Positions 52,015-64,000 of a DNA stretch of 64,000 nucleotides are shown here, piece by piece. Origin of the DNA: Coriobacteriaceae bacterium (GTDB lineage: Bacteria; Actinomycetota; Coriobacteriia; Anaerosomatales; SLCP01). The notes under the pieces were generated by a model. That model did not search any database. It was not told where the DNA came from and worked only from the letters and a program-made list of their open reading frames with translations. Both the position numbers and the translations under genes were made by a program. How positions within the stretch are numbered: position 1 is the stretch's first letter; each line of letters begins with the position of its first letter. The DNA is taken from the NCBI GenBank assembly GCA_003563465.1, contig PWVH01000129.1:429-64428 (forward strand), in the 5' to 3' direction.

Positions 52015-53050
52015 GTGTCTATGACGATGGCGGAGAAGCACGCGGTGACGAGGAAGCTTTCCGAGAGGTACCGGCGGGCGCGCAAGCTGGAGAAGAGCGC
52101 GCTCATCGACATGTGCTGCGAGGTGACCGGATACAGCCGGGACCACGCCGCGCGCCTGCTGCGCGCAGGCCCGCCCGCAAAGCGGCCGGCGAAACGCCGG
52201 AGGGTGCGCAGACGGACCTACGACGCCGAGGTGCTGTTCGCGCTGAGACGGGTGTGGGCCACACTGGACGGCGCATGCGGCAAGCGGGTCGCCGCGGTCA
52301 TGGGGCAGACCGTCGGCGCGATGGAGCGCCACGGCGAGCTCATGATCTCTTCTGAGGCCCGCGCAAAGCTCCTTGCCGTATCGGCGGCCACGATCGACCG
52401 TATGCTCGCGCCGGATAGGGCCAAGCTCGCCTTGAAGGGACGTGTCGGGACCAAGCCCGGCACGCTGCTCAAGCACCAGATCCCGGTCAAGACGTTTGCG
52501 GAGTGGGACGAGGCGCGTCCGGGCTTCGTCGAGATCGATCTGGTGGGCCACGACGGAGGTGTTCTGCGCGGGGAGCACTGCCAGACCCTCGACGTCACCG
52601 ACGTGGCGACAGGCTGGACTTAAGACGCGAGCGGTGCGCAACAAAGCGCAGGTCCACGTCTTTGCCGCACTGAAGGAGATCCGCGCGGCCCTTCCCTTTC
52701 CGCTGCTCGGCATCGACTCGGACAACGGCAGCGAGTTCATCAACCATGAACTCTACCGCTACTGCCAAGACAAGCGGATCACGTTCACCCGCTCGCGCGC
52801 CTACCGCAAGAACGACAGCTGCTACGTCGAGCAGAAGAACTGGTCGGTGGTGCGGCGCAATGTCGGCTACGCGCGCTACGACACCCTCAACCCCGTTGCG
52901 CTCAAGCGTGAGATCGCAGGCTCACAGAAGCGGCTCTACGAGCTCGTCTCGCTCAAGGAATCGATCAGGAGAAGGGAGGTGCAGACACCCGATCTCGACG
53001 ACATCTATGATGAGTCAACGAATGTGTCCTTCGACGACATTCTTACGTGA
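52015..53050 (+). pseudogene. DDE (integrase-core/rve-like) transposase, frameshifted near 52621 and probably internally deleted
   Basis: ORF 52015-52623 ends ...DVTDVATGWT*, and the reading continues in the +1 frame as ..TRAVRNKAQ...GIDSDNGSEFIN...EQKN. The D, D, E candidates are present. The combined length of about 345 aa looks short, and YDT is joined directly to LNPVALKREI. Confidence 0.75.
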
Positions 53051-56317: not shown

Positions 56318-57223
56318 TCACGCCCGCGAGTCGACGCCGATAAGCCCACCGACGGCACGCCATGCGGAGACGACCGCGGCCATGCCCGGAGAGGCGGTGC
56401 CCGGCTCGTAATCCCGCCATCCGAATCGCATGGTAGGTAAAGCGGCTATGTCCGGTGCGTACGGTATCTCGGCGATCAGAGGCAGACCCCTTTCGGCACA
56501 GAACTCGCGTATCCAGTCGGCTCCCTCGGCTGAAAGGTCCGCCTTGTTCAGAATGACTGCCACCCCAAGATCGAAGCGATAGGCCAACTCCGCCAGCCTG
56601 GCCAGATCGTGGACCCCGGAGACGGTAGGTTCTGCTATGGCTACGAGCAGGTCCGTATCTGCTAAGGCAGCGATAGCCGGGCACCCCACACCCGGCGGGC
56701 CGTCGATGAGCAGCAGATCCGCATCGCAGTCATCGGCTTCCTTCAGGCCGAGGCGACGCACCTCGGTCACCAGCTTACCGGACAGGTCTTCGCCAGGCAG
56801 CAAGCTGCCGAACGACATCCGGCCTGCCGAACTCGTCCCGGCGCACATGCTCCCCGCCGCACCGGTTTCCATCTTGATCGCACCGGCCTTGCAGACACGA
56901 GCGCACGCTCCGCACCCTTCACAGGAGAGCTGGTCGAAAACGTAGACGCCCGCTTCGTCCCGCAAGATCGCCCCGAAGCGGCACACTGTCTGACAGGCTC
57001 CACAGGCTTTGCAGGACTCCGTATCGACCGTTGCCTTGGCGCCACCTTTGAAGTCCTCGCACGAAGCTTCCTCGACTCCGAGGGCGATAGGTAGATTGGA
57101 GCCCTCGACATCCGCGTCAACCAAGACCGTACAACAGCTTTTCGCGGCGAGGTGGGCAAAGAGTGCCGTCAGCGTAGTCTTTCCGGTGCCTCCCTTGCCG
57201 GAGGCGATCACGACACTCTTCAT
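56318..57223 (-). CDS. MinD/ParA-superfamily P-loop ATPase with an inserted 2x[4Fe-4S] ferredoxin domain (COG1149 type)
   Basis: SGKGGTGKTT deviant Walker A. Ferredoxin insert CKACGACQTVCRFGAI and CEGCGACARVCKAGAI. ATGA overlap with the upstream paralog. Confidence 0.85.
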   Translation of the reverse strand: MKSVVIASGKGGTGKTTLTALFAHLAAKSCCTVLVDADVEGSNLPIALGVEEASCEDFKGGAKATVDTESCKACGACQTVCRFGAILRDEAGVYVFDQLSCEGCGACARVCKAGAIKMETGAAGSMCAGTSSAGRMSFGSLLPGEDLSGKLVTEVRRLGLKEADDCDADLLLIDGPPGVGCPAIAALADTDLLVAIAEPTVSGVHDLARLAELAYRFDLGVAVILNKADLSAEGADWIREFCAERGLPLIAEIPYAPDIAALPTMRFGWRDYEPGTASPGMAAVVSAWRAVGGLIGVDSRA

Positions 57224-58182
57224 CGGCCCGCTCTCTCTCGAAGACCGTCGGCCGCACTCGGAGCACTTCCTTCGGCGACATCTTCGATCCAGCTGGAGAT
57301 TGTCCGGAGCCAGCTCGTCGCCTCGGGTAGTTCGTCCACTATCAGCCCTCCCCGAGCATAGACCTCGGCTATCCTGCGATCGAAGGGAATCCGTCCGACC
57401 ACATCTACACGCTGGGCCGTCGCGAACTCAGCGATGTCCGTCGGGCCACTGCCATCGCGATTCACCACAACGCCGATCGGTAGACCCATGTCGCTTCCGA
57501 GCATCAGACTGAGTTCCAGGTCGTGCAGGCCAAAAGCAGTCGGCTCCGTGACCAGAAGCAGTGCGTCAGCATGGCGCACGGCGGCCACCGCCGAACATGC
57601 CACACCAGGTGGAGCGTCGAGAACCAGGATGTCGGCATCCCACCGCTCGGCCTCTTCGCGAGTCGCACCGATCAAAGAGGGGGCCTTAACCTGGCCGATA
57701 TCCAGCCTACCCGTCACGAGTCGAAGACGCTGTGAGCGTTTGGCGACGCCGGTGGATACCTCTCCGACACGTAGAGAGCATTCGCCCATAGCCCCTGTCG
57801 GGCATGAAGACACGCAAACACCGCACCCGTGGCATATCTCCTCGAAGACCACCGGTGTTCCGCCGAGGATACGGACCGCACCGAAGGCGCAAAGATCGCT
57901 GCACGTGCCGCAAGCGTTGCACGCCTGGGAATCCGGCCGAGCTACCTTCGACTCGACAGACGTGAGTTTGTCCGTACGCGCGGGAAGAAAGAGATGGCTG
58001 TTAGGAGCTTCTACATCGCAATCGGCAAGCAGTACAGAAAGACCGGCGTCGGCCCAGAGAACCGCAAGGTTGGTGGCCACCAACGTCTTTCCTGTACCGC
58101 CTTTACCTGAAGCGACCGCAAGGATGAAGGGGGCGTATCCGTCTGCCAGCTCGCAACGATCAGCAGCTGCTCTCGATCTCAC
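57220..58182 (-). CDS. Second MinD/ParA-type P-loop ATPase with an inserted ferredoxin domain (COG1149 type)
   Basis: SGKGGTGKT; CNACGTCSDLCAFGAV and CHGCGVCVSSCPTGAM. Start chosen at GTG 58182 (GGAGG 9 nt upstream); GTG 58200 is the alternative. Confidence 0.85.
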   Translation of the reverse strand: MRSRAAADRCELADGYAPFILAVASGKGGTGKTLVATNLAVLWADAGLSVLLADCDVEAPNSHLFLPARTDKLTSVESKVARPDSQACNACGTCSDLCAFGAVRILGGTPVVFEEICHGCGVCVSSCPTGAMGECSLRVGEVSTGVAKRSQRLRLVTGRLDIGQVKAPSLIGATREEAERWDADILVLDAPPGVACSAVAAVRHADALLLVTEPTAFGLHDLELSLMLGSDMGLPIGVVVNRDGSGPTDIAEFATAQRVDVVGRIPFDRRIAEVYARGGLIVDELPEATSWLRTISSWIEDVAEGSAPSAADGLRERAGR

Positions 58183-58184
58183 GC

Positions 58185-58562
58185 CTAGTGGCCTCCGCAC
58201 ACGAACCTGTCATCCATGGGCTCGACCTCGCCAGCCAAAAGGAGGTCGACCACATCGCCGATTCCCGGCGTGACGTTGTCGAAGTATACGTCGATGCCGA
58301 CCTCATTGAACCCCGCAAGCGGGCGAGCCCCCATGCCAGCAACCACGAGAGCGTTCACTCCGTGCGATGCAAGCAGCTGGACTGGCTGAAGACAACCACC
58401 ATCGACATGCGGTGGATTGTCAATGACCCGGACGTCGGAGACCTTGCCGTCACTGATCTCTACGAGAGTGAACTTATCGCAACGGCCGAAGTGACCCGAC
58501 CGCTCGCCTTCGAGTCCGCCCTCCCCGACAGAGGGGACCGCAAGCAGAATGCTGTCTGGCAT
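58185..58562 (-). CDS. NifX/NifB-C-terminal-like (dinitrogenase FeMo-cofactor-binding domain, COG1433) protein
   Basis: SGHFGRCDKFTLVEI ... VNALVVAGMGARP pattern of PF02579. Start at ATG 58562 (GGAG 6 nt upstream). Confidence 0.85.
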   Translation of the reverse strand: MPDSILLAVPSVGEGGLEGERSGHFGRCDKFTLVEISDGKVSDVRVIDNPPHVDGGCLQPVQLLASHGVNALVVAGMGARPLAGFNEVGIDVYFDNVTPGIGDVVDLLLAGEVEPMDDRFVCGGH

Positions 58563-58610
58563 GCCTATCTCCATTCCGTTTCGGTAACCATTTCCCAGCT
58601 TGCCAACGCT

Positions 58611-58973
58611 CTATCGCATGCCAGCATGAGCGGTTCCTTCGTCAAGAGCAGGAAGACGCCCCTCAGCGAGCGCTTTCACTGCCTCTCGGACAGTAAGTCC
58701 CGTCCCTTTGTAACCTGTGATTCCCGCCGCGCCGAGTGCACGGTAGGCTTTCGGACCGAGATGACCCGTGATCACTGCATCGGAACCGCGTTCGCTGACC
58801 AGTTCTGCAGCGCCTATGCCGGCTCCTTGGAGCGCATCGACGTTCGCTGCGTTATCCACAGCATCGAAGGACATCGATTCAGAGTCGACGATCACGAGGT
58901 ATCGCGCTCTGCCGAAGCGCTCATCCACCTGATCGTCTAACGTGGGGCCGAGGGCGGCGACTGCGACCTTCAC
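58611..58973 (-). CDS. Second NifX/NifB-like (COG1433) protein
   Basis: ERFGRARYLVIVD ... DAVITGHLGPKA. GTG 58973 overlaps the DUF5320 TGA (GTGA). Confidence 0.8.
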   Translation of the reverse strand: MKVAVAALGPTLDDQVDERFGRARYLVIVDSESMSFDAVDNAANVDALQGAGIGAAELVSERGSDAVITGHLGPKAYRALGAAGITGYKGTGLTVREAVKALAEGRLPALDEGTAHAGMR

Positions 58974-59194
58974 AGCCACCGACCCCATCCACGTCGATAT
59001 CCGAGGCCAAGGTGCCGCCTTTCGGCGGGCGATCTCATGCCGCGACCCGGTCGAAGCCCTCTGCCGAAAGCAGCGAATCTTCGCAAGCCTGTAGCGCGCC
59101 TGCGAAAGACTTCCGCGTCTTCTATGCAGTAGCCGCGACCGCCACCGGTCATCTCTCCCTCGCCGAGCGGTCCTGTCCTATCGAATCCAGGCAT
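58970..59194 (-). CDS. DUF5320-family small Gly/Arg-rich protein
   Basis: MPGFDRTGPLGEGEMTGGGRGYC matches the remembered DUF5320 N-terminus (MPRGDGTGPMG..MTGRG.GYC). Confidence 0.7.
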   Translation of the reverse strand: MPGFDRTGPLGEGEMTGGGRGYCIEDAEVFRRRATGLRRFAAFGRGLRPGRGMRSPAERRHLGLGYRRGWGRWL

Positions 59195-59220
59195 CGTTGC
59201 ACCTCCGTTCCAGTAAGGTC

Positions 59221-59625
59221 CTACTTCTCTGTCTTCTCGCTTCCGAGCGCGCTTTCCAGCGCATCGGAGAGCACGCTGGCAAGCCTCTCGCGTTCTCGAA
59301 GATGGGCGACCCAGTGAGCTGCCAACTCGCGTCCGTCTTCGGTGAGCTGGTACTCACGCCTTTGTGGTCCGGACTCGCCCTCGGCCCAATTGGATGTGAC
59401 CAAGCCCTCTTCTTCCATCCGCCTGAGAACACGGTAGAGACCGCCAGCATCGACAAGTATCTCGCCGTCTGTCAGTTCTTCGATCACTCTCCGGAGGTCG
59501 TAGCCGTGACCGCTCGAAGAGACTAGCGCCGCAAGGGCAGCCGGCTCAACGAGAGCGCCTCGGCCTCCGCCTCGACCGCGCCCGACGCCGCAACAGCGTC
59601 TATGGCCTGGCCCGTAATCGCGCAA
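59221..59625 (-). CDS. PadR-family transcriptional regulator with a Gly/Arg/Cys-rich N-terminal extension
   Basis: GYDLRRVIEE...GGLYRVLRRMEEEGLV...REYQLTEDGRE winged-helix motifs. TTG start with AGGAGG 8 nt upstream. Confidence 0.85.
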   Translation of the reverse strand: MRDYGPGHRRCCGVGRGRGGGRGALVEPAALAALVSSSGHGYDLRRVIEELTDGEILVDAGGLYRVLRRMEEEGLVTSNWAEGESGPQRREYQLTEDGRELAAHWVAHLRERERLASVLSDALESALGSEKTEK

Positions 59626-59670
59626 AGAAAGCGACCTCCTCTGATTAGCGCGAGATATATGTCCAAAACA

Positions 59671-59699
59671 ACTATATGCGGTTCACATCTAGATGTCAA
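59671..59699 (-). promoter_or_regulatory. Near-consensus sigma70 promoter of the padR-led operon, with an overlapping 12-bp palindrome
   Basis: Minus strand reads TTGACA (59699-59694), a 17-nt spacer, then TATAGT (59676-59671). The perfect palindrome ACATCTAGATGT at 59685-59696 overlaps the -35 and spacer. Confidence 0.6.
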
Positions 59700-59799
59700 C
59701 GTCTGTTTCTTGCTTGATTCTTACTGCGCTGGGATTGCGGACGCCCGCCGAGTCTCTTCGGCATGGGTTCTCGACTGGCGCTGGGCTGGGCTGGCTGGG

Positions 59800-60171
59800 C
59801 TAGTCCGGCAGCTCCAGCTCGTTCACCACTTCGGTCTTCAGCATCTTGACCAGAGCCAGGAGGGCCTCCACGACGTTTTCTCGGATGTCGCCAGCCACGA
59901 GCACGTACATGATGTCATCACCCACGGCCAGCTTGCCTTCGTTCACCCAGGCGCGCACGTGTTTCACGCCCTCCATGAGGCGAGCCGTGTCGAGCACCTC
60001 AGCCAATCTCGTACGGTCGACCGAGAGCTCCATACCGGTCACCGGATCTCCGCCACGTGAATGGCCACGCACGACTCCGTTGTGAACCAGGTACATGCCC
60101 ACACCTTCGACCTCCCCGCCACCCTTGATCTCCGCCAGCCAAGTGTCCAGTGATGGTCTCGTATCATGCAT
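59800..60171 (-). CDS. Small MoaE-like (molybdopterin-synthase large-subunit fold) protein, function unknown
   Basis: 123 aa. The pattern G..LVHNGVVRG...V..ME....(helix)...V.VNEGKLAVGDDIMYVLVAGDIRENV..AL...V..LK resembles the MoaE core but lacks the PIWKKE tail. Assignment is from memory. Confidence 0.5.
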   Translation of the reverse strand: MHDTRPSLDTWLAEIKGGGEVEGVGMYLVHNGVVRGHSRGGDPVTGMELSVDRTRLAEVLDTARLMEGVKHVRAWVNEGKLAVGDDIMYVLVAGDIRENVVEALLALVKMLKTEVVNELELPD

Positions 60172-60268
60172 GGCACACCCGCCTATCCGCTCTCATGGTT
60201 TCACTTCGGCGACCTTCGCAGACAAGTGTAGATCAGCCGTTGCCGGCAACGAAGGCTGAGTCTCGCTC

Positions 60269-61855
60269 TCATGACGAGCATGGGAATCGCAGACGGTCCA
60301 GGAAACTCAGGTACGCGGGATCGCGCATGAAAGCACGGATGCGTTTGCGGCCGATCGCAAGAAAACTCGTCGGCGCGTACTTGTACTCCGCGTGAATCCT
60401 TACCCACTCGAACAGCCGCTTCGGGAATGCAAGTTCGGCCAGATAGGCACGTTGGCCCTTCCCCAGCAACCTGTGCCGGAAGAACGTGCCTCTCAGCGCG
60501 GAGAGAGCAACCCGCCAGATGGAGTAGAAGCGTCGGTACTCCTTGGTCACGAAGCGCTGCATCTCCTGCGGTGTCATCCGATCCGGTTTCAAGACCACAT
60601 GCATTCCATCAAATAGCGCCAGGTCTTCAATTCTCGAGAACAGCATTCTGTTCGTCTTGAGATGCTCGCGCGTCCGTTTGGTCCCCGGCAAGGGCGTCTC
60701 GAACAGGTATTGCAGCGACGTGACGCACTTCTTCGCGTAGTCGCAGTTGCGACGGATGATCTCGCGCGTATCACTCGGCAAGGCTATGAACATACCGTGC
60801 ACTACTAGCCCGTAGCGTCGCATGGCGCGTAACGCGCGGGACATGCGAGAGCTATCTATGAGCTTGTGGAGCTGATCTAGGTTCGCATCATCCGCAGACT
60901 CTACGCCCACGCACACGACAGTGACCCCCGCCACCTTCTTCAGCAGACGCAAGAGCTCGCGATCGAGCCGGCCTTCGGACGTAAGTGCGGCGCTCGCGTG
61001 CATCTGGACGACCAGCATGCGGCTGAAGCCCTTTTCGGACACCGAGCGCAGGAACTGCTTGAACGAGGGTTTGTTAGCCGCGGCGTTGTCGTCGATCAGG
61101 AATGTGGTGCGAAAACCTTCGTCCCAGGCTCGCACCATCTCGCCGACGCTAGACCCATCTTGACGCACTACGTAGCGTGGCCAGATCTCGCACACCTCAC
61201 AGAAGTCGCATCTGCGTGTACATCCCCGAGAACGCCAGACAGCGGCCACGGAGATACGATGCGCTTGGTGCACGAGCGACCTGTCCACAAATGGCAACGC
61301 GTCGAGCTCTTCCCGGCTCAGCTGCTGTGGTGGAGGCCCTTTGCGGAGTCGGTCTTCCTCCCTCCAGACGAGCCCGGGAATGGCTTCAAGTGATTCGCCG
61401 TCTTGCCCCAGAAGTGCCACCACCAAACGAGGCAGCGTTATCTCGGCCTCTCCACGCAGAACGTAGTCTGCGCCGACAAGGATGCTCCGCTCAGGTTCAC
61501 ACGTAGGCTCGGGACCGCCGAAGACGATCTTCGCCTGCGGGTTGATCGCCCGTGCCTGCTCGAGCAAGCGTTGCGTCCTGGGCACCGTGCAAGTGATCGC
61601 CGAGAAACCGACCACATCGGCGCCGGCTACGAAATCCCAGTCGACGGAACCCTCGCCGCTGATGTCCTCGATGAATGCCTTGGCGTCGTGTCCTGCATCT
61701 CGCAGCACCGTGGCAAGCAGCGGAATCCCTCGGCCCATAGCCACGTGAGAGTAGATATTGAGACCGGGTGACCCGGCTTCGATGAGGGCCACGCGTCCAC
61801 TGCGCGGCGCCTCGGTGGTCGCCACAGCAGCCTCCTTAGGATCGTCTTGCTCCAT
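60269..61855 (-). CDS. B12-binding-domain radical SAM protein (COG1032 type)
   Basis: N-terminal Rossmann-like cobalamin-binding region, SRGCTRRCDFCEV (CxxxCxxC), and a long C-terminal domain. Start uncertain (ATG 61855, 61900 or 61936). Confidence 0.85.
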   Translation of the reverse strand: MEQDDPKEAAVATTEAPRSGRVALIEAGSPGLNIYSHVAMGRGIPLLATVLRDAGHDAKAFIEDISGEGSVDWDFVAGADVVGFSAITCTVPRTQRLLEQARAINPQAKIVFGGPEPTCEPERSILVGADYVLRGEAEITLPRLVVALLGQDGESLEAIPGLVWREEDRLRKGPPPQQLSREELDALPFVDRSLVHQAHRISVAAVWRSRGCTRRCDFCEVCEIWPRYVVRQDGSSVGEMVRAWDEGFRTTFLIDDNAAANKPSFKQFLRSVSEKGFSRMLVVQMHASAALTSEGRLDRELLRLLKKVAGVTVVCVGVESADDANLDQLHKLIDSSRMSRALRAMRRYGLVVHGMFIALPSDTREIIRRNCDYAKKCVTSLQYLFETPLPGTKRTREHLKTNRMLFSRIEDLALFDGMHVVLKPDRMTPQEMQRFVTKEYRRFYSIWRVALSALRGTFFRHRLLGKGQRAYLAELAFPKRLFEWVRIHAEYKYAPTSFLAIGRKRIRAFMRDPAYLSFLDRLRFPCSS

Positions 61856-61980
61856 CCTCCTCGGCACATGCGCACCACGCGCCCCGCTCACATGCCGCAT
61901 GATTGTTATCTTCCCACACCATGACTCAAGGCGCATGAAGGTTGGTTATGCTCTCACCGTACGATGAATCGGGAGCGATG

Positions 61981-62880
61981 ATGACTCGATATACCGATCT
62001 AAGTACGACCGGAGAACTAGCCCGCCGAGCAGAGCGGGCACGGGCCGAACTCGTGAACTGCAAGGTATGCCCACACGAGTGCCTGGTAGACCGCCTAGCA
62101 AGGCAGCGAGGCCTTTGTCGTGCTGGAGCCCTTGCGCGCATCTCGAGCGCGGGACCACACTTCGGCGAGGAGGCCCCCCTCGTCGGGAGACGTGGATCTG
62201 GCACGGTGTTCTTCGCTTGGTGCAACCTTCACTGCGAGTTCTGCCAGAACGCCGACATATCCCAGTTCGGACACGGAGAGGATATGGCCGCCGAGGAGCT
62301 TGCCGAAGTCTTCGTCGGCATTCAGACCGCTGAATGCGAGAACCTCAACCTCGTAAGCCCCACGCATTTCACTCCGCAGATCCTCGCCGCACTCGATATC
62401 GCAGCCGAACAGGGTCTTACCCTCCCCATCGTGTGGAACACCGGCGGCTACGAATCCCTCGACACACTGGAGCTTCTCGATGGAGTGGTCGACATCTACA
62501 TGCCCGACTTGAAATACGCCGACGCCGAGACCGCATTGCGTCTCGCGGGAGCGAGCGACTATCCCGACCGGGCGTTCGCTGCCGTGCGTGAGATGCATCG
62601 ACAGGTCGGCGACCTCGCGATCGGGAAGCACGGTTCCGCTACCAGGGGTTTGCTCGTGCGTCACCTCGTCCTACCAGCTGAGCTTTCGGGGACCGCCGAG
62701 GTCATGCGTTTTCTTGCCGAGGAGGTTTCCAGCGACACGTACGTAAACGTCATGGACCAATACCGCCCCTGTCACAGAGCTCACGAAACGCCCGAGCTAT
62801 CCAGACCTGTCACAGCAAGCGAGTACGAAGCTGCCCTCGACAGCGCGCGTGTCGCCGGGCTGCACCGATTCGCACGGTAA
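61981..62880 (+). CDS. PflX-type radical SAM protein (COG1313, PFL-activase homolog)
   Basis: CKVCPHEC...GLC N-terminal Cys motif, GEEAPL, FFAWCNLHCEFCQNADIS. Start is probably ATG 61978/61981 (GGGAG upstream) rather than 61942. Confidence 0.85.
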   Translation: MTRYTDLSTTGELARRAERARAELVNCKVCPHECLVDRLARQRGLCRAGALARISSAGPHFGEEAPLVGRRGSGTVFFAWCNLHCEFCQNADISQFGHGEDMAAEELAEVFVGIQTAECENLNLVSPTHFTPQILAALDIAAEQGLTLPIVWNTGGYESLDTLELLDGVVDIYMPDLKYADAETALRLAGASDYPDRAFAAVREMHRQVGDLAIGKHGSATRGLLVRHLVLPAELSGTAEVMRFLAEEVSSDTYVNVMDQYRPCHRAHETPELSRPVTASEYEAALDSARVAGLHRFAR

Positions 62881-62908
62881 GGAAGGAATCGGGAACACTC
62901 ATTCTACG

Positions 62909-62960
62909 ACCAACCGATTGCCACCAACCGATTGCCACCAACCGATTGCCACCAACCGAT
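62909..62960. repeat. Perfect 14-bp tandem direct repeat ACCAACCGATTGCC x3.7
   Basis: Units at 62909-62922, 62923-62936 and 62937-62950, plus a partial unit at 62951-62960. It lies 29 nt after the PflX stop and 17 nt before the next ATG. Confidence 0.9.
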
Positions 62961-62976
62961 GCGATAGGTACCGGAC

Positions 62977-64000
62977 ATGCGCAAGATCGACTTCACAGAG
63001 CTGCTCGGAGTCGACCCTGTACCGTGGCTACTGGGCTATGGAGAGCCTTATGCCGTCTGGGCTACTTTGACGGATGTCCTCGGCATGGGCCGCGACGATT
63101 CCGAAGTCACTCAGGCGCATGCGGCGGTAATCGACGACGAAGGGGTGCGCCGTCTGATAGCCGAGTTGCCAGAGTGGGGCTCGGCCGATCAGACCGCGGG
63201 GCACCACACCGCGGGCTTTCTGCCCAACAGACTGAACCTTCTCGCCGACATGGGTGTCGGAGCCGGCGACTTCGGCCGCATCGAAGAGCTGCTCGACCGG
63301 ATGCTAGAAGACCAGGACTCGAGAGGACGCTTTCGGTCACCGGAAGAGACCGCAGGACGTCCGAAGCCCGAGCGGGGATCTTTGCTGTGCGACACCAACG
63401 TCATCACCGACGTGTTGATACGTTTCGGACGCGGCGGCGACTCGCGCGTTCATGCCGCGCTCGAACGCACGGCTGCCGATTTGGCGACAACCCCGCAGGG
63501 ACGTGCTTGGCAGTGCGTTCCCGAACAGCGCTCGCTGTTCAGAGGACCGGGCCGCAGGTCCGACGTTTGCCCTCAGATAACCCTGGAGGGTCTCAGGGCC
63601 TTCTCCCACAAGCCACGCGACAAGCGGCCACCAGCTGTCGCCGACGCGGCACGTACGCCACTTGAAACCTGGCGACGTCGCACCGAAGAGCGGCCCTACG
63701 GGTTCGGACACGGCTACCAGTTCAAGAGCGTCAGATGGCCGAACTTCTTCTACGACGTTCTTTGGGTTCTGGAGACGGTCGGACGCTATCCTGAGCTGTG
63801 GCGCGGCCCGCGTGCACGCAGCGAAGACCGTCGCTCGGTGGCAGAGCTGGCAGCATGCCTGATCGAGTACAACTTCAATCGTGATGGCACCGTGACCCCT
63901 CGGCGGACATATCAAGGGTTTGAGGAGTTCTCCTTCGGCCAGAAGCAATCTCCTTCTCCGTTCGCAACGGCTCGCTCGCTCGGCGCCCTCGTACGCGTGT
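62977..64000 (+). CDS. Hypothetical protein, 5' part only (runs off the window); possibly a prenyltransferase/terpene-cyclase-like alpha/alpha-toroid repeat protein
   Basis: Open frame from ATG 62977 to the window end (341 codons), absent from the ORF track. Reads MRKIDFTELLGVDPVPWLL... with repeated Q/D-x-x-(D/Q)G-x-(F/W)-like segments (DQDSRGRF, TPQGRAW, NRDGTV). High GC3, unlike the Arg-rich ORF 62946-63665 in another frame. Confidence 0.55.
   Translation, partial: MRKIDFTELLGVDPVPWLLGYGEPYAVWATLTDVLGMGRDDSEVTQAHAAVIDDEGVRRLIAELPEWGSADQTAGHHTAGFLPNRLNLLADMGVGAGDFGRIEELLDRMLEDQDSRGRFRSPEETAGRPKPERGSLLCDTNVITDVLIRFGRGGDSRVHAALERTAADLATTPQGRAWQCVPEQRSLFRGPGRRSDVCPQITLEGLRAFSHKPRDKRPPAVADAARTPLETWRRRTEERPYGFGHGYQFKSVRWPNFFYDVLWVLETVGRYPELWRGPRARSEDRRSVAELAACLIEYNFNRDGTVTPRRTYQGFEEFSFGQKQSPSPFATARSLGALVRV

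Follow-up and report, generated by a model that had tools for sequence, protein, structure and literature searches.

A tight block of three cofactor-type genes in a Coriobacteriaceae genome: a short MoaE protein and two orphan radical SAM enzymes that are probably chance neighbours

In a 64,000-nucleotide stretch of a Coriobacteriaceae genome (contig PWVH01000129.1, positions 429 to 64,428 of the forward strand; the window), three genes stand close together beside an iron–sulfur (Fe–S) operon. They encode a small MoaE-like protein (the short MoaE), a cobalamin (B12)-binding radical S-adenosylmethionine enzyme (B12-rSAM) on the same strand and a PflX-type radical SAM enzyme (PflX) on the opposite strand (Table 1). 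The genome, G000 in our surveys, is a metagenome-assembled genome (MAG) of 1.80 Mb in 167 contigs with a completeness of 90.65%. A first-pass annotation of the window had proposed that the three genes and the neighbouring operon make up one undescribed pathway of cofactor or metallocluster maturation. We consider it probable that the three genes were inherited independently and came to lie together by chance; they would be a short MoaE acting in the molybdenum or tungsten cofactor (Moco/Wco) pathway and two orphan radical SAM enzymes. Gene content, folds, distributions and synteny are given below as results, and the chemistry is inferred throughout. The finding is mostly an ordinary one, of three unrelated genes of which two are orphans; since the proposed new pathway is not upheld, follow-up of a false cluster can be spared.

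We searched each of the three proteins in 146 species genomes of the order Anaerosomatales, including G000. B12-rSAM is present in 44 genomes, the short MoaE in 58 and PflX in 11, and the pairs occur together at about the level expected by chance. B12-rSAM and the short MoaE are both found in 19 genomes (17.5 expected), B12-rSAM and PflX in four (3.3 expected), and the short MoaE and PflX in G000 alone (4.4 expected). None of the 145 other genomes has any two of the three genes adjacent, and the closest pair on one contig outside G000 lies 32 kb apart (G061). A first survey, in which each protein served as query against the 40 nearest species genomes, found B12-rSAM orthologs (E < 1e-100) in 13 genomes, the short MoaE in nine and PflX (E < 1e-100) in seven, plus one weaker match. 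The pairs that co-occur among these nearest genomes (G026, G034 and G040; G013 and G032) lie on separate contigs.

The surroundings of the orthologs also lack the partner genes. Neither a MoaE-like nor a PflX gene is present at any of 12 B12-rSAM ortholog loci of 10–19 kb each, which were searched by tblastn with 13 proteins of the window (E ≤ 1e-5). Neither radical SAM gene is present at 80 short-MoaE loci, which were taken, with flanks of up to ±9 kb, out of at least 586 matching stretches in species genomes of GTDB. B12-rSAM is likewise absent from all 80 metagenome-derived PflX loci, one of which carries a MoaE-like gene (see below). Gene calls at the compared loci rest on conservation across loci and on Pfam. 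The first-pass annotation had named a lack of conserved co-localization as a result that would refute its proposal, and such a lack is what the 146 genomes and the ortholog loci show. With co-occurrence also at the chance level, the proposal of one pathway is not supported.

The short MoaE passes the gathering threshold of Pfam family PF02391 (Table 1), and the match recurs in six-frame genome searches. The protein scores below the MoaE equivalogs (PRK10678, 21.0 bits against a cut-off of 175; PRK14493, 24.1 bits against a cut-off of 215); judged from its sequence, it is a divergent short subfamily and not the curated equivalog. An AlphaFold2 model built from an 81-sequence alignment has a predicted local distance difference test score (pLDDT) of 95.2 and a predicted template modelling score (pTM) of 0.87. 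Foldseek returned 31 matches to this model in the PDB at E ≤ 0.001; the 20 matches listed at this threshold are all MoaE or MOCS2B, with template modelling (TM) scores of 0.67–0.78 on the query. Both the profile match and the predicted fold therefore bear out the MoaE-like call of the first-pass annotation. The Pfam family and the fold are common to the MoaE of the Escherichia coli MoaD2–MoaE2 complex (PDB 1FM0), human MOCS2B (4AP8) and the short MoaE. Canonical MoaE has about 150 residues, whereas the short MoaE stops at residue 123, just past the region of Lys119, and has neither a counterpart of Lys126 nor the canonical C-terminal tail. Arg35, Arg97 and Lys112 align with residues 39, 104 and 119 of E. 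coli MoaE (phmmer, 1FM0/1NVJ) and are invariant in 81 short-MoaE sequences. Arg39, Arg104, Lys119 and Lys126 are active-site residues of the E. coli protein. The most likely role of the short MoaE is to bind cyclic pyranopterin monophosphate and to assist in its conversion to molybdopterin, with Arg35, Arg97 and Lys112 serving as the conserved counterparts of Arg39, Arg104 and Lys119.

The family gave 1553 matches at E ≤ 0.001 among proteins of 67–216 residues and spans Actinomycetota and Clostridia; the relatives have 116–142 residues among the 120 matches listed. The short MoaE is the sole PF02391 match in G000, and the same is true of each of five further holders that were searched (Oscillibacter valericigenes, Youngiibacter fragilis, Parasporobacterium paucivorans, an Oscillibacter MAG and a Slackia MAG). 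In Clostridia, the gene order is MoeA, MoaA, MobB/MoaC, MoaB/MogA and short MoaE. MoeA, MoaA or MobB–MoaC lies within 5 kb of the short MoaE in 24 of the 80 loci, and a PBP_like_2-type ABC transporter lies nearby in six. In contrast to canonical MoaE, the short MoaE is often fused to MoaB/MogA and is attached to an orange protein (ORP)-type operon in six families. The in-frame fusion with a MoaB/MogA domain (MoCF_biosynth) is found in 16 of the 80 loci, all within the L094–L137 series from Clostridia (for example, L136:8470-9387 and L101:8479-9381), and gives proteins of about 300–390 residues; in four more loci a separate MoaB stands immediately before the short MoaE. On the most economical reading, the MoaE function in the Moco/Wco pathway falls to the short MoaE.

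The Moco operon of G000, complete in other respects, lies on a separate contig from the short MoaE (C61; L144:669-15291). Its order is a LysR-type regulator, TupA/ModA-like ABC genes (a PBP_like_2 protein, a permease and an ABC/TOBE ATPase), a MobA–FdhD fusion, MoeA, MobB, MoaA, MoaC, a 166-residue MOSC protein, MoaB/MogA and a cysteine desulfurase, with neither MoaD nor MoaE within the operon. A ThiF-family gene is present in G000. Two multihaem cytochrome c genes follow the Moco operon. A further context of the short MoaE, of the type seen in family f19, recurs in 12 loci (L064–L078): MetH-like, MTHFR and Metallophos_2 genes precede the short MoaE, and GGDEF genes and genes for Pyr_redox_2–radical SAM fusions follow it.

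A single neighbour of the short MoaE is conserved, the ORP-type operon, a set of PadR, DUF5320, NifX-like and MinD/ferredoxin genes that in the window lies just downstream of it (Table 1). In a first clustering of ORFs (open reading frames) around its relatives, this operon stood beside the short MoaE in three of ten loci. Across the order, the adjacency is found in six genomes of six families, which are six of the 17 holders outside f19. In five of them, the short MoaE immediately precedes PadR in the same orientation: G000 (f1), G026 (f14), G124 (f18), G142 (f2) and G148 (f15). In the sixth, G019 (f7), the short MoaE closes the operon; it begins 62 nt behind an Mrp/NBP35 gene, which itself comes after the MinD pair. 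The Mrp/NBP35 gene encodes a P-loop ATPase of NUBPL type (L048:5736-6680) and makes the ORP-type operon of G019 a seven-gene one. In G126 (f18), the short MoaE and the operon are 7 kb apart. The other flank of the short MoaE differs each time, being B12-rSAM in G000 and an AcrB-like pump, a glutaredoxin, a GDSL lipase or a DUF6933 protein elsewhere, and neither radical SAM gene lies near the five other modules. The first-pass annotation had linked the whole block to the Fe–S operon; this link stands for the MoaE-like gene, which recurs beside such an operon in six families, and is not supported for the two radical SAM genes. We regard the recurrent attachment of the short MoaE to the ORP-type operon as a modestly new element.

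Related arrangements are found outside the order-wide set. In another Actinomycetota MAG (L097), the short MoaE is divergent from a run of DUF5320, ferredoxin, MinD, MinD, Mrp and radical SAM genes, the last being unrelated to the radical SAM enzymes of the window. This operon (L097:2-4427, minus strand) is of ORP type without NifX and encodes a 196-residue ferredoxin-like protein, two MinD/ferredoxin ATPases and Mrp/NBP35. In L109, a MinD pair is divergent from a partial MoaE-like match (70 residues, 46% identity), and a full-length copy lies 4.5 kb further on. An Rfam search (E ≤ 0.1) of the G000 stretch and the five other MoaE-plus-ORP loci, 55.6 kb together, returned no Moco riboswitch. 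Rfam recovered only a fluoride riboswitch (RF01734; 47.4 bits, E 4e-10) at L227:734-796, near the MoaE/PadR/NifX locus of G148.

As a comparison system we used the ORP complex of Desulfovibrio vulgaris Hildenborough, which in the excerpted text of PMC6345978 comprises the MinD–ferredoxin ATPases Orp3 and Orp4, Orp5, Orp8 and MrpORP. Like that system, the operon of the window encodes a pair of MinD/ferredoxin ATPases, along with two Nitro_FeMo-Co-domain proteins, and the Mrp/NBP35 gene added in G019 and L097 parallels MrpORP. Unlike the Desulfovibrio system, which is under sigma-54/OrpR control, the operon of the window has a PadR regulator. The excerpts of PMC6345978 do not mention MoaE, and those of PMC6650914 draw no link between MoaE and the orange protein. 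The same excerpts of PMC6345978 describe an S2MoS2CuS2MoS2 cluster bound by Orp8 homologues. MoaE as a recurrent neighbour of ORP complexes is a concrete hint towards Mo/W metabolism, because the founding protein of these systems binds a Mo–Cu–S cluster.

Several observations weigh against independent inheritance of the three genes, or against a short MoaE that works in the ordinary Moco pathway. First, only 97 nt separate the stop of B12-rSAM from the start of the MoaE-like gene, and no terminator-like site was found there or elsewhere in positions 59100–63100; because of this short gap and the missing terminator, co-transcription of the two genes in G000 is possible. For positions 58900–62900, the sequencing runs listed comprise three DNA data sets, one of them with 0.90 of the words of this stretch, and no RNA data set. 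Each of the three genes has its closest homologue, at 85, 81 and 77% identity, on a contig of 31,164 nt. This is probably one and the same contig, from a sister MAG, in which case the gene order may be common at shallow depth. In one of the 80 PflX loci (L204), PflX is preceded by a MoaE-like gene at a distance of 1.1 kb, and in G127 (L229, C1:1049000-1064000) 4.5 kb separate a B12-rSAM ortholog from a PadR–NifX2 pair downstream of it. The PadR match in G127 is split over two frames, maybe by a frameshift, and no MinD genes follow. Many of the surveyed MAGs are fragmented, so some adjacencies may hide at contig ends. As for the Moco pathway, PF02597 (MoaD/ThiS) has no match in G000 (90.65% complete) or G019 (99%), an absence that in a MAG is no proof, and we saw no convincing candidate in G000 for a small beta-grasp-like ORF ending in GG. 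Among the 41 nearest genomes, MoaC is present in 35 and any PF02391 match in only ten. Nevertheless, a single pathway uniting all three genes with the ORP-type operon seems to us extremely unlikely. The tight packing in G000 (97 nt and about 120–155 nt), the Fe–S, radical or cofactor type of every gene, the probable sharing of the gene order by a sister MAG and the isolated echoes in L204 and G127 speak for it; the lack of any adjacent pair in the 145 other genomes, the chance-level co-occurrence, the absence of B12-rSAM and PflX from the 80 MoaE loci, from the loci of the other families and from the five other modules, and the occurrence of PflX at about 60% identity in four lineages (by protein name) outside Actinomycetota speak against it. 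A narrower version, in which B12-rSAM and the MoaE-like gene form a recent two-gene operon of the genus and the radical SAM enzyme modifies a pterin or cofactor intermediate held by MoaE, we judge very unlikely. The shared strand and the 97-nt gap without a terminator-like site agree with such an operon, and the presence of each gene in only one of the 13 genomes of the window's family would fit a joint acquisition. However, among the 19 genomes with both genes they are adjacent in G000 only, and five other genomes with the short MoaE before PadR carry the different upstream genes named above.

The remaining alternative concerns the MoaE gene only and is compatible with the radical SAM genes as bystanders. 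Here, the short MoaE would be a working part of an ORP-type complex and not of a classical, MoaD-dependent molybdopterin synthase; it would bind a pterin or a Mo/W–sulfur species that is exchanged with the NifX-like proteins, with the MinD/ferredoxin ATPases driving the process. The adjacency on the same strand in five families, the position inside the operon after Mrp/NBP35 in a sixth and the divergent arrangement in L097 agree with this, as do the undetected MoaD in G000 and G019, the Mo–Cu sulfide cluster of Orp8 (PMC6345978, in excerpt), and the missing Lys126 counterpart and C-terminal tail. Furthermore, 52 of the 58 genomes with the short MoaE have a NifX-like gene, versus 48 of the 88 without it, and outside f19 the counts are 16 of 17 versus 47 of 85, although kinship among the genomes means that these counts, given here without a test statistic, overstate the case. 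In f19, where 41 of 44 genomes have the short MoaE, none of the 41 is ORP-adjacent among the matches listed, and the Clostridia relatives stand in plain Moco operons or are fused to MoaB, and ORP genes are lacking from their surroundings. In G000 itself, a promoter-like site lies between the MoaE gene and PadR, so the ORP operon may be transcribed alone; it is the sole such site in positions 59100–63100, against 0.7 expected, and is a match to the consensus only. A predicted complex of NifX1, NifX2 and the short MoaE scored 0.00 against a mark of 0.32, which speaks neither for nor against binding. On balance, a role in the ORP-type complex appears unlikely, and the more specific proposal of a MoaD-independent handler of pterin or thiometallate that works with ORP-type complexes (NifX-like and MinD/ferredoxin proteins) appears more doubtful still. 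If such a handler exists, it would tie the ORP systems of anaerobes to Mo/W cofactor synthesis and would help to explain how molybdopterin is made in anaerobes that have MoaA and MoaC and no canonical MoaD or MoaE. The ratio of MoaC to MoaE holders among the 41 nearest genomes sharpens the problem of the apparently missing molybdopterin synthase. In most of the order, no identified gene accounts for the molybdopterin synthase step, and PF02597 has no match above the Pfam cut-off in three of the five Clostridia and Slackia holder genomes.

The two radical SAM enzymes belong to well-defined orphan families, of which that of B12-rSAM is restricted to a lineage and that of PflX crosses phyla. None of the three proteins of the block reaches an NCBIfam equivalog cut-off, and in the Protein Atlas both radical SAM proteins fall in generic 'radical SAM' clusters only. 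B12-rSAM shares with the class B cobalamin-dependent radical SAM enzymes (BchE and HpnJ) an N-terminal B12-binding domain (PF02310, residues 69–171) and a CxxxCxxC radical SAM core (PF04055, residues 236–394), the motif being CTRRCDFC in its translation. Its best NCBIfam matches are BchE (113.7 bits), HpnJ (92.8 bits) and HpnR (77.2 bits), against cut-offs of 481–650; for the BchE equivalog TIGR02026, the cut-off is 481.35. Sequence matches in the PDB are weak (9ccb_A, E 2.9e-8; CysS, E 7e-4). Orthologs of 54–68% identity are present in 43 other genomes of the order. Of 8000 candidates scored for the family, 221 match at E ≤ 1e-10; the best 120 of the 221 are 55–81% identical and bear generic names only. 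Unlike BchE and HpnJ, the family is restricted to anaerobic Actinomycetota and has no conserved neighbour. Pfam searches of 89 flanking ORFs of the 12 ortholog loci show neighbours that differ from locus to locus (toxin–antitoxin genes, transporters, surface proteins and regulators), and no chlorophyll or hopanoid context was found in these loci. No small neighbour is conserved except for an ORF of 93–111 residues common to two genomes of one genus, and, in line with the first-pass annotation, no precursor of a ribosomally synthesized and post-translationally modified peptide was seen, though no dedicated search for small ORFs was made. B12-rSAM can thus be described, on its sequence relationships, as a member of a stand-alone orphan family of anaerobic Actinomycetota. 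Enzymes that combine a B12-binding domain with a radical SAM core most commonly carry out methylation. The enzyme is predicted most likely to run a cobalamin-dependent radical reaction, either a methylation or a BchE-like transformation.

Surface proteins with CWB2 domains lie within 2–3 kb of B12-rSAM in seven of 13 loci. We rejected them as partners; because their distance, orientation and N-terminal domains vary, and only the cell-wall-binding repeat is common to them, their recurrence is read as background.

PflX carries the motif CNLHCEFCQNADIS and an N-terminal CKVCPHEC. It shares with the pyruvate formate-lyase activating enzyme (PFL-AE, PflA) the CxxxCxxC radical SAM motif and an activase-like core. 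The model of PflX (pLDDT 95.1) has E. coli PFL-AE as its best fold match (PDB 3CB8/8FO0; E 4e-11, TM 0.71–0.74 on the target), followed by lipoyl synthase, and there is no sequence match in the PDB at E ≤ 0.1. Unlike PflA, PflX has an invariant N-terminal C-x2-C-x3-C-x11-C motif and two further cysteines: in 42 sequences, Cys28, Cys31, Cys35 and Cys47 of the N-terminal motif, Cys82, Cys86 and Cys89 of the SAM cluster, Cys120 and Cys265 are invariant. The extra four-cysteine site probably holds an auxiliary Fe–S cluster. PflX scores 16–24 bits against all PflA and activase equivalogs (cut-offs of 131–425), for example, 18.7 bits for TIGR02493 (cut-off 231.75) and 19.7 bits for TIGR02494 (cut-off 174.35). 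The glycyl-radical domain PF01228 was found in G032 and not in G000, G004, G009 or G013. Because the search did not find it in four of these five holder genomes, PflX would not be a classical glycyl-radical activase there, and such a role is not predicted for the PflX of the window.

The PflX-type proteins form a very large, highly conserved cross-phylum family, which we take to be the one labelled COG1313. All of the 8000 candidates that were scored match at E ≤ 1e-10. Among the matches listed, the relatives are 59–77% identical over 98–100% of the length of PflX, and those of about 60% identity bear Chloroflexota, Armatimonadota, Hydrogenedentes and Clostridiales names. Since the family is this large and about 60% identity is kept across phyla, PflX is a good target for functional work. 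JGI names the relatives 'putative pyruvate formate lyase activating enzyme', and a literature search for the PflX radical SAM family or COG1313 found no paper. In the 80 metagenome loci, the commonest neighbours are metallophosphoesterases (13 loci, as 10 + 3) and acylphosphatase (six loci); these are too infrequent (13/80 and 6/80) for either to be named as a partner. A metallophosphoesterase (Metallophos_2) also lies near the short MoaE in the f19-type context. Phosphoketolase and acetate kinase genes lie upstream of PflX in three of nine loci, and an ORF with an AlkZ-like domain follows it in two of the nine, with 803 residues in the window and 771 residues in L057 (G013). These neighbours are read as shallow synteny, because the loci all come from the family of the window.

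Table 1. Positions of the three genes and of the features around them in the window.
Feature	Position	Strand	Details
MoaE-like gene	59800-60171	-	123 aa; PF02391 43.6 bits vs cut-off 23.4
B12-binding rSAM	60269-61936	-	Longest ORF 555 aa; PF02310 65.9 bits + PF04055 47.4 bits
PflX-type rSAM	61942-62880	+	312 aa from TTG; PF04055 36.1 + PF13353 (Fer4_12) 25.2 bits
ORP-type operon PadR-DUF5320-NifX-NifX-MinD/Fdx-MinD/Fdx	56318-59625	-	Pfam
Sigma-70-like promoter match TTGACA-17-TATAGT (11/12)	59671-59699	-	Between MoaE-like stop and PadR start
803-aa ORF start, continues past window	62977-64000	+	C-terminal AlkZ-like DNA glycosylase domain

All three ORFs lie where the first-pass annotation had placed them, and Pfam agrees with its domain calls (B12-rSAM, a PflX-type radical SAM enzyme with an extra N-terminal four-cysteine motif and a MoaE-like protein). 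Pfam also confirms the neighbours that it had described as a NifX-like/MinD–ferredoxin operon and a short-chain dehydrogenase/reductase (SDR), with PadR, DUF5320, two Nitro_FeMo-Co proteins, two MinD/ferredoxin proteins and the SDR all recovered. Elsewhere in the window, two overlapping plus-strand ORFs (52015–52623 and 52442–53050) resemble, on inspection by eye, a putative frameshifted transposase or integrase. The starts of both radical SAM genes shift from those of the longest ORFs. Because the relatives of B12-rSAM align from about residue 45 of the 555-residue ORF and the gene caller gives 518 residues, the true protein likely has about 518–528 residues with a start near 61855–61825. The relatives of PflX begin at residue 13–14 of the 312-residue ORF and the gene caller agrees; the start likely lies at 61978/61981, which would give 299–300 residues. 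With these revised starts, the divergent gap between the two genes is about 120–155 nt, in agreement with the earlier estimate of about 120 nt. In the 803-residue ORF downstream of PflX (L062:1406-3817), the N-terminal part of about 400 residues has no family match, and the C-terminal part matches PF06224 with 156 bits.

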